A stretch of DNA of 64,000 nucleotides, from assembly GCA_943788395.1 (NCBI GenBank), contig CALSQC010000001.1, positions 647,035 to 711,034 on the forward strand, given 5' to 3'. Positions within the stretch are counted from its first letter, which is position 1; the number at the start of each line of letters is the position of its first letter. This stretch comes from an uncultured Candidatus Pelagibacter sp. GTDB lineage: Bacteria; Pseudomonadota; Alphaproteobacteria; Pelagibacterales; Pelagibacteraceae. The notes under the pieces were generated by a model. That model did no database searches, was not told where the DNA came from, and saw only the letters and a program-made list of their open reading frames with translations. This document shows positions 4,461 through 17,134 of this stretch, piece by piece. A program made the translations under genes and the position numbers.

Positions 4461-5457
4461 GCAAGTTATACTTAATTATTGTTTCAGCAATTTCTACTGA
4501 ATTCAAAGCCGCACCTCTTAAAAGGTTGTCAGAAACAATCCAAAGATTTATAGTATTCTTATTAGTTTTATCCTCTCTAATTCTTGAGATAAAAGTTTCA
4601 TTTTTACCTGCAGCTTCAATCGGTGTGCTATATCCACCATCTTCTCTTGAGTCGTAGACTTCACATCCATCTGCTTTATTTAAAGCTTCATTAATTTTTT
4701 CCAAAGAAAATGGTTTTTTAAATTGAACATTAACAGACTCTGCATGAGAAACTAAAACTGGAATTCTTACACAAGTTGCTGTTAATTCTATATTTTTATC
4801 TAAAATTTTCTTAGTTTCATTTGTCATTTTTAATTCTTCTTTTGTATAACCATCATCAGTAAAATGATCTATGTGAGGGATAGCGTTAAATGCTATTTGT
4901 TTTGTGAAATTTTTTGACTTGATAGATTTATTTTCCAAAAATAATTTGGTTTGATCAATAAGTTCATCCATGGGAGCTTTTCCTCCACCTGATACTGACT
5001 GATAAGTGGAAACAACTATTCTTTCAATATCAAATAAATCATGCAATGGTTTTAAAGCGATTACTAATTGAGCTGTAGAGCAATTTGGATTTGCTATTAT
5101 ATTTTTTTTCATAGTTTTGATTGCTTCTGCATTTACTTGAGGAACAATTAAAGGAACATCCGGGTCCATTCTAAAAAAACTAGAATTATCAATTACTATT
5201 GAATGTTTGGCAGCCTTTTCAGCAAAATTTTCAGAAATTTTTCCTCCTGCTGCGAAAAACGTAATTTGCACTTTTGAAAAATCAAATGTTTCAAGATTAA
5301 AAACTTCATGTTCTTTGCTTTTGAAAAGTACTTTTTGTCCTGCACTTTTGGGTGAGGCAACTAAATATAATTCTTTAATAGAAAGATTTTTTTTTTCCAA
5401 AACCTCAAGCGTTTTTCTGCCAACGTTTCCTGTTGCTCCTACAATTGCTACATTCAT
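4450..5457 (-). CDS. asd: aspartate-semialdehyde dehydrogenase
   Basis: 335 aa. N-terminal VAIVGATGNVGR NAD fold and active-site context NPNCSTAQL. Confidence 0.9.
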   Translation of the reverse strand: MNVAIVGATGNVGRKTLEVLEKKNLSIKELYLVASPKSAGQKVLFKSKEHEVFNLETFDFSKVQITFFAAGGKISENFAEKAAKHSIVIDNSSFFRMDPDVPLIVPQVNAEAIKTMKKNIIANPNCSTAQLVIALKPLHDLFDIERIVVSTYQSVSGGGKAPMDELIDQTKLFLENKSIKSKNFTKQIAFNAIPHIDHFTDDGYTKEELKMTNETKKILDKNIELTATCVRIPVLVSHAESVNVQFKKPFSLEKINEALNKADGCEVYDSREDGGYSTPIEAAGKNETFISRIREDKTNKNTINLWIVSDNLLRGAALNSVEIAETIIKYNLHGK

Positions 5458-5477
5458 GATATTCTATAACTTTTATA

Positions 5478-6587
5478 CTAGATGAAAGGTAAATCGCAAA
5501 CTTTTCCGTTAAAAGTATTGTTATTTAGTTCAATCTTGAAGGTTTGAGTGCTTTCCCAAAAAGGTTTTTTAATCATTGCTATTCCTATCACTTCTTTAAA
5601 ATGAGGTGAGTAACAAGCTGATCTTAATTCTCCAATGATATTATTGTCTTTATCGTGCAGATTTTGTGATCCTGTAAGGCTAATTTCTTTTGTGTTAATT
5701 TTTACACCCATTAACTTTTTTTGAATTCCTTTGGATTTTACTCGTTTTAATTTTTCTTTTCCCAAAAAATTTATATCACTATCTAAACTGACATATTGAT
5801 CAAAACCACACTCAAAAGGATTGTCATTATTATCAAAATCATTTCCATAGGATAACAATGCACTCTCAATTCTTTCTATTAAATTTGGACATCCTGGACC
5901 TACATTAAATTCTTTTCCAACTTCAAAAAGTTGATCATATAATTTTTGTCCTGATGTTGTGTTTTGGACATATACTTCATATCCACCTTGTTTAGACCAT
6001 CCTGATCTTGCTATTAAATGTTTAGTTCCTTCAAAATCAAAATAATCAAAGCCAAAAAATTTTAGTTCAGTAATTTTCTTTCCAAAAATCTTTTCCATTA
6101 ATGCAAATGATTTAGGGCCTTGTATTGCCATTATATCCACTGTTGGCTCTATAATCTTCACATCAAATTTATGTCCTGATGCAAGCCCCTTCGCAAAAAA
6201 GATTACATCAGAGTCTGCTATTGATATCCACCATTTATTTTCATCTAATTTTAAAACAACAGGATCATTTACCAAGTTTCCATTTTCATCTATTATTGGG
6301 CAATAATAACATCTGCCAACTTTTGATTTTGATAAATCCCTACATGTCATTAATTGAACTAATTTAGCAGAATCATTTCCTGATATTTCTACTTGTCTTT
6401 CTGCTGCAACATCCCATACCTGAACGTGTTCCTTTAAATGTTTATAACTATCCTCTATTGAGCCAAAGGCAGCAGGTAGTAACATGTGATTATAAATTGT
6501 ATATGCTGTGACCCCTTGTTTCTCTATTCTTGAGGTATATGGTGTACTTCTTAATCTTCTAGATTTTGCTATTGAAAAGTTTTTCAT
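5478..6587 (-). CDS. dmdA: DMSP demethylase (GcvT/aminomethyltransferase family)
   Basis: 369-aa GcvT-family protein. The sequence [26 protein letters not shown]... matches my memory of Pelagibacter DmdA. Sits in the dmdA..dmdB-dmdC neighbourhood. Not verified by search. Confidence 0.8.
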
Positions 6588-7360
6588 ATTTTTAAAAATT
6601 CTAAAATCTTTTCTCTCATTTCAAAAGCTTTTTCAAACATAATCATATGCCCACAGTTTTTTATTATCTGTGTTTTTGAATTTGGAATAGAATCAGCAAA
6701 TTTCTTACCTTTTTCAAGATTAATCATCTTGTCAAACTCACCAAAAATACATAGCGTTGGGCAATTAATTTTTTTTACTGCCTCAGAGCCATTTCTGTAA
6801 TTATTACAGGCGATTAAATCTATGGCCAAAATTTCTCTGATTTCTCTTGCTGAGTTAATAATTTTTTCAACTGGATTTCCTCCAATAAACTTTTTTGAAT
6901 TTTCATAACTCCATTTCATCATTAAGTTTACTGCTTGATCATCACCTGCTTCTGCAAGATCTATTAAATCTTGATTAACTGGCATTTTATAAGAACCACC
7001 CACAAAAATTAATCTTTTTACTTTTTTTGGGTACTTAGAAAAATATTCAAGTGCCTCCAAACATCCCTGTGAATGTCCAATTATTGTCACATCTAAAACT
7101 CCAAGTTGGTTTAAAACTTTTTCTATCCAATCAGATATTTTTTCAATTGAAGGCAAACATTTTCCTTCTGAATTACCATGTCCTGGTAAATCTAAAGATA
7201 AAACATTATAATTCTGATTAGATAAGTATTGCTCTGTTAAAGACCATACAATATGTGAAAGTCCACTTCCATGTAGCAAAAGAATTGTATGTTTATTCTT
7301 ATCGATACCTTTGCCTGCATCAGAGGCAAATACATCTTGCTTGTCTACTTGAAATATCAA
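6584..7360 (-). CDS. alpha/beta-fold hydrolase of unknown substrate, embedded in the dmd cluster
   Basis: 258 aa. Oxyanion HG ([10 protein letters not shown]), nucleophile elbow GHSQG and C-terminal His (NCGHMIM). Overlaps both neighbours by 4 nt. Confidence 0.8.
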
Positions 7361-8985
7361 GTTAATTCCTTGACTTTTTTTCTAAGTTCAAATTTTTGAA
7401 TTTTTCCTGTTGATGTTTTTGGTAAATCACAAAAAATAACTTTTTTTGGAAGCTTAAATCCTGCTAAAGTTTCTCTACAAAAATCTATAATGTCTTTTTC
7501 TGATGCTGGTTTATCTTTAATCAATTCAACAAATGCACATGGCGTCTCACCCCATTTTTCATCTGGTTTTGCAACAACTGCCGCTAATGATACTGATGGA
7601 TGTTTTGCAATAGCATTTTCTATTTCAATTGAAGAAATATTTTCCCCCCCAGAAATAATAATATCTTTAGATCTATCTTGTATCTTTATGTATCCATCTG
7701 GATGTGTGACCGCTAAATCACCTGAATGAAACCAACCACCAGCCATTGATTTATCGGTTGCTTCCTTATCCTTATAATACCCTTTCATTACAATGTTTCC
7801 TCTAATCATTATTTCACCCATAGTTTTTCCATCCTTTGGCACAGGCTTCATTGTTTCAGGATCCATTACAACCGCACCTTCAGTATTAGGATAACGAACT
7901 CCTTGTCTTGCTTTAATTTCATTCTTCTTATCTTTTTCAAAATCATTCCATTCTTCATTCCATGCACACTGCAACATATGTCCATAAGTTTCAGTTAATC
8001 CATACACATGCATAACTTCAAATCCTAAATTTTCCATCTTTTCAAAAATAATACTAGGTGGCGGTGCACCAGCAGTCAGAACATTAACTTTTCTTTTTAA
8101 TTTTTTTTGTTCTTTTTCTGGAGCATTTACAATCATATTTAATACTATTGGAGCTCCCCCAAAATGAGTCACCTCATGTTTATCAATTAACTCAAACATT
8201 TTTTTTACATCAATATTTCTCAAGCAAATAACTCTTGCATGTAGCATTGCAAGCGTCCAAGGGTAACACCACCCATTACAATGAAACATTGGTACGACAC
8301 ATAAAAAATTTAATTTATTAGGCATATTCCATGCGGTAGCACTACCTGTCGCCATCAGATATGAACCTCTATGATGGTAAACTACGCCCTTAGGATTTCC
8401 CGTGGTCCCAGATGTATATCCTAATGATATTGCCTGCCATTCATCTTTTGGTTTTTTCCATTCATAATTTTCATCACCTGTATTTAAAAAACTTTCATAT
8501 TCTAAATCGCCAATTTTTTTAAAATTACTGGTGTCTATATCTTTGTCATCTATATCTATAATAGTAATTTTATTTTTAACATTCTCTAAAGCTTTGACTA
8601 TTACTTCATGGAATTGTCTGTCTACAATTAAAACTTTAGCGTCACTGTGTTCTAGAATATAACTTATAGTATTAGGATCTAATCTTGTATTGATTGCGTT
8701 AATTACTGCACCCACCATAGGAATCGAGTAATGAGCCTCAAAAATTTCTGGTGTATTAAAAGCCATAATAGAAACTGTGTCTCCAGTTTTAATTCCAATT
8801 TTATCTAATGCGCTAGCAAACTTAACGCATCTTTTATAAACATCTTCCCATGTGTATGATCTACTTTCATAAACAACAGCTTCATATTTTGGATATATAT
8901 CTTTTGTTCTCTCTAAAAATGTTAATGGAGATAAAGGAACATAGTTAGCCTCATTTTTATCTAAATTTGTATCGTAGTGATTCAT
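7357..8985 (-). CDS. dmdB: AMP-forming acyl-CoA ligase, probable 3-methylmercaptopropionate-CoA ligase
   Basis: 542 aa. AMP-binding motif YTSGTTGNPKGV and C-terminal SGKIQK. Position next to dmdA and dmdC. Confidence 0.75.
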   Translation of the reverse strand: MNHYDTNLDKNEANYVPLSPLTFLERTKDIYPKYEAVVYESRSYTWEDVYKRCVKFASALDKIGIKTGDTVSIMAFNTPEIFEAHYSIPMVGAVINAINTRLDPNTISYILEHSDAKVLIVDRQFHEVIVKALENVKNKITIIDIDDKDIDTSNFKKIGDLEYESFLNTGDENYEWKKPKDEWQAISLGYTSGTTGNPKGVVYHHRGSYLMATGSATAWNMPNKLNFLCVVPMFHCNGWCYPWTLAMLHARVICLRNIDVKKMFELIDKHEVTHFGGAPIVLNMIVNAPEKEQKKLKRKVNVLTAGAPPPSIIFEKMENLGFEVMHVYGLTETYGHMLQCAWNEEWNDFEKDKKNEIKARQGVRYPNTEGAVVMDPETMKPVPKDGKTMGEIMIRGNIVMKGYYKDKEATDKSMAGGWFHSGDLAVTHPDGYIKIQDRSKDIIISGGENISSIEIENAIAKHPSVSLAAVVAKPDEKWGETPCAFVELIKDKPASEKDIIDFCRETLAGFKLPKKVIFCDLPKTSTGKIQKFELRKKVKELT

Positions 8986-8986
8986 A

Positions 8987-10750
8987 TTAATTAAATTTGA
9001 AATTCATTATATAATCACTACCAGATGTAGCTGTTTTAAAGTGACTTTCGACTCTTGGTAAAACTCTTTTAAAATAAAAATTTGCAGTTTGTATCTTATC
9101 TTCATAAAAGTTTTTATTTTGATCATAATCTTTAAAGCTTACTTCTAAAACTTTTACCCAAGCATGAGCGATAGCCACAAAACCTAGAGCTTTTAGATAA
9201 TCATTACATGCTGCGCTTGCATCGTCTTTTGAATTTTGTATTTTTTCCTTAATCCAAGAACTAAAGTTAGACAAAATTTTTAAATGTATTTCTAATTCAT
9301 TTATAAAAGGCTTTAATTTTTTGTTATCAGTGTTGCAATCATTTTTTATTAATTCTAAATATCTATCAATTATATCCCCATTTTTATTAACTAATTTTCT
9401 AAACACCAAATCTGCTGCTTGGATAGAGTTCGTTCCCTCATAGATTGGGGTAATTCTATTATCTCTATAAAGCTGTTCTATTCCTTGATCTTTTGTATAT
9501 CCATAACCACCATGAACTTGCATTGCTTCACTTGTTATTTCCATTCCCATATCAGTAAACATTGTTTTAACTACTGGCGTCATTAAAGAAACAAAATCTG
9601 AGGCTTCTTGTTTAACTTTTTCATCTGGATGATAAAGGCTAACTTCTGTTTGTTGAGACAGCCAAAAACATAAGGCTCTCTCTCCTTCAATAATAGATTT
9701 CATATTAAGTAAAGATTTTTTAATATCAGCATGTTCAATGATAAAATCTGCACCATTAGTTGATTTTGTATTATTTGTTTTCCCTTGTTTTCTCTCTTTT
9801 GCATAACTTAAAGAATTTTGATATGCAATTTCAGAAATTCCTAATCCTTGGATTCCAACAACAATTCTTTCTAGATTCATCATGGTAAACATTGCATTTA
9901 AACCTTTATTCTTTGATCCAATCATATAACCAACTGCATCATCAAAATTTAATACACAAGTAGCAGATCCTTTAATTCCCATTTTACTTTCTATAGATCC
10001 TGTCGAAATTCCATTTCTAGCTCCAACAGAACCATCTTCATTTACAATAAATTTAGGTACCAAAAATAAACTTATTCCCTTTGTTCCAGCAGGTGAGTCA
10101 GCTGCTCTTGCAATTACTAAATGAATAATATTTTCTGTTAAATCATGATCACCTGATGTAATAAAAATTTTTTGGCCACTTAATTTATAAGTCCCATCTG
10201 ATTGTTCTACTGCTTTGGTTTTTAAAAGACCTAAATCTGTTCCACACACAGGCTCGGTAAGACACATCGTGCCACTCCACTTTCCTTCTACTATTTTTGG
10301 TAAATATTTATCTTTTATTTCTTCGGTTGCATGATGTGAAATACAATTATAAGCGCCAATGCTTAGTTCACTATAAAGTTTAAATGACAGACTTGCTGAA
10401 GATAACATTTCATCAAAAAAAGCACTTACAGTTTTTGGCATTCCTTGCCCACCGTATTTAGGGTCACATGAAAGTGAAGTCCAGCCATCTTCTATATATT
10501 TTGAATAAGCTTCTTTATAACCTGGTGGTGTTCTGACCACACCATTTTCCAAAACAGTTGGATTTTCATCTCCAGATTTTGCTAATGGTAAAATTAGATT
10601 TTCATTAATTTTTGCTGCTTCAACTAAGATATCCTTAACAAGTTCTGAATTTACCTCTTTATATTTTTCAATTTCATTATAATTTTTATTATTTCTTAAT
10701 TTTTCAAAAAGAAACATCATGTCTTCTACAGGTGCTGTGTAATTTGGCAT
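8987..10750 (-). CDS. dmdC: large acyl-CoA dehydrogenase, probable MMPA-CoA dehydrogenase
   Basis: 587-aa acyl-CoA dehydrogenase fold (…IYEGTNSIQA…). Lies 1 nt from dmdB. Confidence 0.7.
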   Translation of the reverse strand: MPNYTAPVEDMMFLFEKLRNNKNYNEIEKYKEVNSELVKDILVEAAKINENLILPLAKSGDENPTVLENGVVRTPPGYKEAYSKYIEDGWTSLSCDPKYGGQGMPKTVSAFFDEMLSSASLSFKLYSELSIGAYNCISHHATEEIKDKYLPKIVEGKWSGTMCLTEPVCGTDLGLLKTKAVEQSDGTYKLSGQKIFITSGDHDLTENIIHLVIARAADSPAGTKGISLFLVPKFIVNEDGSVGARNGISTGSIESKMGIKGSATCVLNFDDAVGYMIGSKNKGLNAMFTMMNLERIVVGIQGLGISEIAYQNSLSYAKERKQGKTNNTKSTNGADFIIEHADIKKSLLNMKSIIEGERALCFWLSQQTEVSLYHPDEKVKQEASDFVSLMTPVVKTMFTDMGMEITSEAMQVHGGYGYTKDQGIEQLYRDNRITPIYEGTNSIQAADLVFRKLVNKNGDIIDRYLELIKNDCNTDNKKLKPFINELEIHLKILSNFSSWIKEKIQNSKDDASAACNDYLKALGFVAIAHAWVKVLEVSFKDYDQNKNFYEDKIQTANFYFKRVLPRVESHFKTATSGSDYIMNFKFN

Positions 10751-17033: not shown

Positions 17034-17053
17034 AATAATTACACCCAGCAGTA

Positions 17054-17134
17054 ATCGCACTAGTGGGCGAAGCCTCGCTGACTAGTGTCGATCTCTTTGT
17101 TTCCAAAGACACCGCAAATTTAACGTTTTTGCGG
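17054..17134. promoter_or_regulatory. two strong palindromes/hairpins in the ffh-dapF divergent intergenic region
   Basis: 17054..17092 is ATCG-CACTAGT-GG-GCGA-AGCC-TCGC-TG-ACTAGTG-T-CGAT. 17112..17134 is CCGCAAA-N9-TTTGCGG. A perfect TATAAT lies at 17149..17154, 41 nt before the dapF ATG. Function is unknown. Confidence 0.35.

Follow-up and report, generated by a model that had tools for sequence, protein, structure and literature searches.

The dmd cluster and its hydrolase gene

The window analysed here, a stretch of 64,000 nucleotides (G000:C1:647035–711034) from a 1.16-Mb Pelagibacter-type genome, contained on its minus strand a four-gene cluster for demethylation of dimethylsulfoniopropionate (DMSP), in which a gene for an alpha/beta hydrolase lay between dmdB and dmdA. 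The cluster was flanked by leuCDB on one side and by asd-sdhCD on the other. An original prediction, made from the sequence letters, had given the gene order as dmdC, dmdB, hydrolase, dmdA with 4-nucleotide overlaps on both sides of the hydrolase, and this was confirmed by the list of open reading frames (ORFs) and by direct reading of the TTGA and ATGA junctions. The features of the locus were as follows.

5478..6587, minus strand: dmdA, DMSP demethylase, 369 amino acids (NF009133 equivalog, 606 bits against a cut-off of 410)
6584..6587, minus strand: ATGA overlap of the dmdA start and the hydrolase stop (junction read directly; the same ATGA in most orthologous loci)
6584..7360, minus strand: alpha/beta hydrolase, 258 amino acids, the subject of this report (PF00561/PF12697/PF12146)
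6647..6649, minus strand: codon of the catalytic His238 in CGHM (invariant column)
6731..6733, minus strand: codon of the catalytic Asp210 in GEFDKM (invariant column; aligns with Asp200 of the Archaeoglobus fulgidus enzyme AF-Est2)
6806..6808, minus strand: codon of Cys185, nearly invariant in the family (present in ≥90% of the aligned sequences; counterpart of Cys172 in AF-Est2)
7070..7072, minus strand: codon of the nucleophile Ser97 in GHSQG (invariant in both alignments made)
7357..7360, minus strand: TTGA overlap of the hydrolase TTG start and the ligase TGA stop (junction sequence read directly)
7367..7371, minus strand: AAGGA, a Shine-Dalgarno-like motif ~8 nucleotides upstream of the hydrolase start, within the 3′ end of dmdB
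7357..8985, minus strand: dmdB-like acyl-CoA ligase of the PRK08162 type, 542 amino acids (NF006020, 873 bits against a cut-off of 677)
8987..10750, minus strand: dmdC-like acyl-CoA dehydrogenase, 587 amino acids (Pfam Acyl-CoA_dh_N/M/1 and the C-terminal domain PF12806)

The window ligase scored below the cut-off of the PRK07008 model for ligases that join 3-methylthiopropionate (MMPA) to coenzyme A (CoA) (349 versus 822 bits), and orthologues 76–79% identical to it held the same position in relatives. The dmdC-like dehydrogenase gene was also syntenic with dmdB and dmdA in relatives. The TTG start of the hydrolase was judged credible because its N-terminus (MIFQVD..VFAS) aligned with the conserved N-termini of orthologues, because the homologous position was TTG in 23 and ATG in 7 of 31 orthologues, and because of the AAGGA motif upstream. 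An AGG-containing motif occurred at equal distance in most orthologues where the hydrolase followed dmdB.

The hydrolase exceeded the Pfam gathering scores of PF00561 (97 versus 25.8 bits), PF12146 (72 versus 27 bits) and PF12697 (63 versus 26.3 bits). It had been recognised at the outset as a Ser-His enzyme from its GHSQG motif, and in a 75-sequence alignment Ser97, Asp210 and His238, together with the His30-Gly31 oxyanion motif, were all invariant. An AlphaFold2 model (predicted local distance difference score 93.3, predicted template modelling score 0.92) had a beta-sheet core with a helical cap, and its Foldseek neighbours were generic small esterases (template modelling scores of 0.80–0.84), and also lactonases and C-C hydrolases, which pointed to no particular function. 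From these features the gene is predicted to encode an active Ser-Asp-His alpha/beta hydrolase. The crotonase fold was not indicated, as the protein had no PF00378 match.

Automatic annotations of the hydrolase disagreed, some calling it BioH-like and some a plain hydrolase, and a protein atlas named it only "hydrolase". The name BioH, which is the automatic name at the Joint Genome Institute, was rejected on scores far below cut-off (TIGR01738, 61 versus 207 bits; PRK10349, 34 versus 449 bits) and on the lack of a biotin-synthesis context; BioH, the pimeloyl-ACP methyl ester carboxylesterase, shares with the hydrolase its superfamily and a similar length. A literature search for SAR11_0247, SAR11_0248 and SAR11_0249, and for MetY with a hydrolase, returned no paper giving this hydrolase a role and none mentioning SAR11_0247, in agreement with the earlier statement that its role was not established.

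Conservation of the hydrolase in Pelagibacteraceae

The distribution of the hydrolase was followed in a family sample of 150 Pelagibacteraceae genomes, 58 of these of high quality. An orthologue (57–82% identity) occurred in every one of the 20 genomes sampled from the window's genus and in the majority of those from several other genera; none was found in four genera, which also lacked dmdA. By comparison of coordinates, the hydrolase gene abutted dmdA in almost every genome having both, the exceptions being contig breaks, a one-gene insert and the genomes G001 and G059. The dmdA-hydrolase-dmdB arrangement, singled out originally as worth comparing across SAR11, was thus conserved across Pelagibacteraceae genera, down to 57% identity.

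In G059 the locus read methylenetetrahydrofolate reductase gene-dmdB-hydrolase-asd, with no dmdA, and in G001 dmdA stood alone in another context, without dmdB and without the hydrolase. Because of these two arrangements the hydrolase was considered to track dmdB more closely than dmdA. No dmdC was seen nearby in G059 (L033:3000-9000), and asd was present there as two tblastn pieces, maybe owing to a frameshift in a metagenome-assembled genome. The insert between hydrolase and dmdA, a GFO/IDH/MocA-family oxidoreductase of 308 amino acids (L036:4458-5384), was present in seven genomes of one genus.

In G590, G616 and G606, which belong to the window's genus, the order was leuB-dmdC-dmdB-dmdA-asd, dmdB being followed by dmdA without an intervening hydrolase. 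These three genomes each kept elsewhere a metY2-hydrolase pair, with a hydrolase at 43–45% identity; MetY is an O-acetylhomoserine sulfhydrylase, able to fix methanethiol into methionine. The unpublished genome G630 had neither hydrolase nor dmdA. Between the metY2-hydrolase pair and the SAR11-type metY of G590 lay an ORF of 369 amino acids (L082:5856-6965) with no Pfam or NCBIfam match, equal to DmdA in length and not similar to it.

A PRK08139-type crotonase accompanying the hydrolase

No crotonase was found within the 64-kb window, and all PF00378 genes of the genome lay outside it. The genome did encode, at C1:318394-319176, an enoyl-CoA hydratase of the PRK08139 type, which scored 348 bits (cut-off 313). 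Among the 58 high-quality Pelagibacteraceae genomes this crotonase was present in 27, and dmdA likewise in 27; across the family sample it occurred in those genera that had dmdA and the hydrolase, and none was found in the four dmdA-less genera. Each genome with a PRK08139 gene had it either in the dmd cluster or elsewhere. The single PRK08139 gene lay directly upstream of the hydrolase in 16 genomes from two sister genera (369–382 bits on the PRK08139 model for the in-cluster crotonases); six of these loci were fully read, and they had the order dmdC-dmdB-OsmC-like-enoyl-CoA hydratase-hydrolase-dmdA. Since the crotonase was present in the window's genome, in the same genera and beside the hydrolase in 16 relatives, the hydrolase appears to accompany a crotonase and not to replace it.

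The original prediction had noted the lack of a crotonase in the cluster and had on that ground proposed the hydrolase as a candidate thioesterase or alternative last step, or an editing activity. The lack held for the window, but not for the genome nor for the clusters of the 16 relatives; with a PRK08139 gene elsewhere in the genome it no longer served as a ground for an alternative last step, and the thioesterase remained the favoured candidate.

The association was also seen in a class sample of 401 alphaproteobacterial genomes, one of which (G389) is unpublished. The PRK08139 crotonase occurred in 108 of 111 hydrolase-bearing genomes versus 73 of 290 without hydrolase, and the PRK08162 ligase in 104 of 111 versus 71 of 290, counts that take no account of relatedness and genome size and so are supportive only. 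Crotonase and ligase occurred together in 160 of the 401 genomes. What is newly established is the co-variation of hydrolase and crotonase with their in-cluster adjacency, the three dmd operons lacking a hydrolase, the exceptions in which the hydrolase tracks dmdB, and the class-wide co-occurrence.

Two groups of genes near the crotonases were recorded. The OsmC-like protein (PF02566, 149 amino acids) between dmdB and the crotonase was found in two genera (L092:5116-5565, L091:8293-8742 and L094:8114-8563), which places a thiol-peroxidase-like protein inside a methanethiol-producing operon. The distal crotonase gene of the window's genome (L001:1495-2280) was followed, with one base shared, by an ORF with a CoA_binding_2 domain (L001:1058-1495), just downstream of which lay msrA, for methionine sulfoxide reductase (L001:249-839).

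The hydrolase within a MetY-linked family

A homologue search over 1.8 billion representatives gave full-length relatives of the hydrolase at 30–43% identity, some of them annotated as coming from Puniceispirillales (SAR116) and other Pseudomonadota. A family profile built from 30 non-SAR11 sequences only found one strong match per genome in 111 of the 401 alphaproteobacterial genomes, and in the window's genome its single strong match was the window hydrolase (E 4.2e-92, 307 bits). At 37 of 40 non-SAR11 loci, from different families, a PRK08134-type metY lay directly upstream of the hydrolase on the same strand; one such MetY neighbour was tested and scored 677 bits against the PRK08134 cut-off of 636. 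A dmdB-like ligase was found within a few kb at 6 of the 40 loci, and in G358 the order was dmdB-like (70% identity)-metY-hydrolase. The 47 loci inspected outside dmd-hydrolase clusters had no crotonase near the metY-hydrolase pair, only two distant paralogues being seen.

SAR11's own metY was of another type. The window genome's only metY was of the SAR11 type (C1:107558-108883), with a SAM-V riboswitch upstream (L059:2820-2887, 80.5 bits), a feature already described for SAR11, and no hydrolase downstream, and metY of this type was present in 55 of the 58 high-quality Pelagibacteraceae genomes, including genera without hydrolase. In Rfam scans, SAM-V was found only upstream of SAR11's own metY, and no S-adenosylmethionine (SAM) riboswitch was found upstream of metY-hydrolase pairs at nine other alphaproteobacterial loci. 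A PIG3-family quinone oxidoreductase and a TrcR-family regulator recurred within a few kb of the metY-hydrolase pair at about half of the alphaproteobacterial loci (e.g. L048:3047-5182).

In a maximum-likelihood tree the 31 dmd-linked hydrolases formed one clade (100 in the Shimodaira-Hasegawa-like approximate likelihood ratio test, SH-aLRT), which nested with the MetY-linked forms of G180, G358, G590, G616 and G606 (SH-aLRT 98) and lay inside the MetY-linked family on a long stem branch. Because the root fell on two very long paralogue branches, the polarity was judged chiefly by how widely the MetY-linked state is spread among taxa. On this polarity the dmd-linked hydrolase would descend from the MetY-linked family, and in SAR11 it would have moved from metY to a place between dmdB (or the crotonase) and dmdA. 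The two groups had in common the catalytic triad, Trp39, Trp78, Trp150, Asp181, Cys185 and Tyr188. They differed by a fixed Arg44 in 40 of 40 MetY-linked versus Gln44 in 31 of 31 dmd-linked sequences, and the TP that follows the catalytic Asp was lost in the dmd-linked clade. The ancestral pairing with MetY is read as methanethiol release set beside methanethiol capture.

Comparison with AF-Est2, DmdD and AcuH

AF-Est2 (AF1537 of Archaeoglobus fulgidus; 5FRD) was the top PDB sequence match to both the window protein (E 9e-19) and the family profile (E 2e-41, 145 bits). It resembles the hydrolase in size, catalytic triad, PGHG and GHS.G motifs and cap region; unlike the hydrolase it is an archaeal enzyme, and its physiological role is unknown. 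Its crystal structure contains a bound CoA whose pantetheine occupies the alcohol (leaving-group) pocket, the thiol being ~4 Å from Cys172, and it prefers C5 esters, valerate esters being the best (PMC4861933). Cys172, beside the thiol of the bound CoA, aligned with the conserved Cys185 of the hydrolase family.

In the literature consulted, the last step of DMSP demethylation is ascribed to DmdD or AcuH. With DmdD of Ruegeria pomeroyi, once methylthioacryloyl-CoA has been hydrated the methanethiol departs spontaneously and malonate-semialdehyde-CoA is formed, a thioester that DmdD itself hydrolyses through Glu141 (Tan et al. 2013, PMC3660561). Close homologues of DmdD are uncommon (PMC3660561); orthologues are absent from Pelagibacter ubique, for which alternate enzymes were hypothesised (Smith et al. 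2016, PMC5069961). The activity proposed to be common to DmdD and the hydrolase is hydrolysis of a CoA thioester after hydration and release of methanethiol. The folds are unrelated: DmdD belongs to the crotonase superfamily, whereas the alpha/beta hydrolase would not be expected to hydrate a double bond. DmdD also performs hydration and hydrolysis alone, whereas the candidate for hydration in the SAR11 lineage is a PRK08139 crotonase, encoded by a gene of its own. In the AcuH systems (Ruegeria lacuscaerulensis, and SAR92 with dmdA-acuH-dmdB-dmdC) the substitute for DmdD is an AcuH-type enoyl-CoA hydratase. The SAR92 cluster resembles those of the two Pelagibacteraceae genera in having the gene of a general crotonase set among dmdA, dmdB and dmdC; unlike the Pelagibacteraceae clusters, published AcuH clusters have no alpha/beta hydrolase partner described.

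Proposed role of the hydrolase

We tentatively favour, at somewhat less than an even chance, a model in which the hydrolase is a thioesterase that partners the PRK08139 enoyl-CoA hydratase in the MMPA-CoA branch of DMSP demethylation, with the substrate and the order of steps inferred. DmdA would make MMPA, the DmdB-type ligase would convert it to MMPA-CoA, and the DmdC-type dehydrogenase would give methylthioacryloyl-CoA. The crotonase would then hydrate methylthioacryloyl-CoA, on which methanethiol would depart spontaneously and leave malonate-semialdehyde-CoA, and the hydrolase would cleave this thioester, or a closely related pathway thioester, to free CoA. An ordinary crotonase would leave a CoA ester needing cleavage, and a Ser hydrolase fits that step. 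The hydrolase is a fitting candidate because it is related to a CoA-binding esterase, is encoded beside a crotonase or ligase, and is almost never found in genomes without them. This would be a two-enzyme version of the DmdD step.

Several points weigh against this role. The metY neighbour at the non-SAR11 loci fits a function at the methanethiol/methionine node at least as well. AF-Est2 did not act as a thioesterase on either of the two CoA esters tried, acetyl-CoA and succinyl-CoA (PMC4861933). Its CoA contacts Arg117, Arg119, Lys206 and Tyr207 were not matched as a set in the hydrolase: Arg117 aligned with Lys125 of the window protein, in a column variable in the family, and Arg119 with Pro, and Lys206 was matched in the MetY-linked consensus (TPxK) and lost in the SAR11 dmd-linked clade. 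AcuH-type hydratases have been treated as sufficient substitutes for DmdD, and 58 of the 160 alphaproteobacterial genomes with both ligase and crotonase lacked the hydrolase, so the step cannot be needed everywhere; the neglect of shared ancestry and genome size in the class-wide counts belongs here as well. With these reservations a thioesterase role is still the best reading of the hydrolase, one that we hold with limited confidence.

A broader proposal, which we regard as doubtful, is that SAR11 and many Alphaproteobacteria share a two-enzyme last step (PRK08139 hydratase and hydrolase thioesterase), ancestrally beside a dedicated MetY paralogue that traps methanethiol as methionine, and that together these might form a widespread, unrecognised module for recycling of MMPA sulfur.

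The strong ancestral link to MetY keeps alive another explanation, unlikely in our estimate, that the hydrolase acts with MetY at the methanethiol/methionine node and not on a pathway CoA thioester. Conceivable substrates, to be taken with the same reserve, are S-methyl thioesters formed from methanethiol and acyl-CoAs (methanethiol being recovered), homocysteine thiolactone and homoserine lactone. Besides the position of the gene immediately downstream of a same-strand, PRK08134-type metY at the 37 loci, this explanation draws on the three Pelagibacter genomes that hold a metY-hydrolase pair instead of an in-operon copy, on the conserved Cys in the leaving-group pocket, and on the lactonases among the nearer relatives in fold or sequence (3-oxoadipate enol-lactonase 2XUA and Est816 5EGN, which degrades acyl-homoserine lactones). 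It is opposed by the observation that within Pelagibacteraceae the hydrolase follows the dmd cluster, whereas SAR11-type metY is nearly universal there and extends to genera without hydrolase; moreover, the adjacency to the crotonase and the near-nesting within genomes bearing crotonase and ligase point to CoA chemistry. A housekeeping or proofreading acyl-CoA thioesterase, which is the editing activity of the original prediction, hydrolysing MMPA-CoA, acryloyl-CoA or 3-hydroxypropionyl-CoA under unbalanced flux and so acting against CoA sequestration or toxicity, would account equally for the co-occurrence and for the CoA-binding relative; AF-Est2 favours valerate esters and pentanoyl-CoA is isosteric with MMPA-CoA, and pairing of a hydratase with a thioesterase is an established disposal of reactive enoyl-CoAs, e.g. 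in valine catabolism. We consider this quite unlikely, as the overlapping gene upstream encodes an ATP-consuming ligase, and to hydrolyse its MMPA-CoA product at once would be futile cycling; the MetY link would also be left unexplained.

The remaining explanations are less probable. A generic esterase that rides along in the operon and takes no part in DMSP catabolism would suit the generic small esterases among the structural neighbours and the disagreement of the automatic annotations between BioH-like and plain hydrolase. It is improbable for a gene that streamlined genomes of 1.2 Mb have retained, with its start and stop codons overlapping those of its neighbours, and that holds its position across genera at the identities given above, sits either in a dmd cluster or beside metY, and in the sample was lost or absent together with dmdB. 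That the hydrolase by itself is the last step, replacing the crotonase and releasing methanethiol from methylthioacryloyl-CoA, was suggested by the crotonase-free window cluster and by the reported absence of DmdD orthologues from Pelagibacter ubique. This is distinctly improbable given that the genome has a PRK08139 crotonase, which shares its genera with the dmd genes and lies in-cluster beside the hydrolase in 16 relatives; hydrolysis of methylthioacryloyl-CoA by itself would yield methylthioacrylate and not methanethiol, and we know of no Ser-His-Asp hydrolase that hydrates an enoyl thioester. Finally, MetX is an alpha/beta hydrolase with a Ser-His-Asp triad, and the family adjoins MetY in most Alphaproteobacteria and has in AF-Est2 a solved relative that binds CoA, so that a short MetX-like acyl-CoA-dependent acyltransferase supplying O-acetylhomoserine for MetY to trap methanethiol was considered. 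It was down-weighted to highly improbable because a canonical MetX is already present at G000:C1:622154-623212 (447 bits, E 1e-134). The hydrolase is also smaller (258 versus ~370 amino acids for MetX), TIGR01392 was not among the best 25 of its 35 NCBIfam matches, its sole MetX-like match scored 31.5 bits against a cut-off of 450, and in SAR11 it follows the dmd genes and not metY.

Among the ocean's fluxes of organic sulfur, DMSP demethylation by SAR11 ranks with the largest, and it competes with production of the climate-active dimethyl sulfide (DMS). Which enzyme or enzymes finish the pathway in SAR11 has been a recognised gap ever since SAR11 was seen to lack DmdD (PMC5069961). Two concrete candidates, the PRK08139 crotonase and the hydrolase, are named here, which occur in the same Pelagibacteraceae genera as dmdA and side by side in some genomes. 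With them, a gap of long standing in a pathway of global importance becomes open to direct test, and the candidates are also linked to MetY. If the favoured thioesterase model is true, the pathway would be completed in the most abundant marine bacteria, marker genes would become available for meta-omics of methanethiol versus DMS, and a function would be assigned to a hydrolase family found in about a quarter of the sampled alphaproteobacterial genomes.

Metatranscriptome contigs and a small RNA in the window

Metatranscriptome contigs from four runs of one study spanned the whole cluster at ≥95% identity, and one contig (6855-7402) bridged the dmdB/hydrolase junction. These contigs give weak support for expression of the cluster; a single transcript is not provable from contigs, and DNA carry-over is possible. 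Contigs from two RNA libraries appeared to join window position 5409 to 6589, skipping 1179 nucleotides, almost exactly dmdA, although the shorter side comprised only 21 letters and the signal is weak. The jump may reflect co-occurring strains without dmdA, as in G059. The ffh small RNA (RF01793, 54 bits), at window positions 17049-17102, was the sole Rfam match in the window at the gathering threshold.

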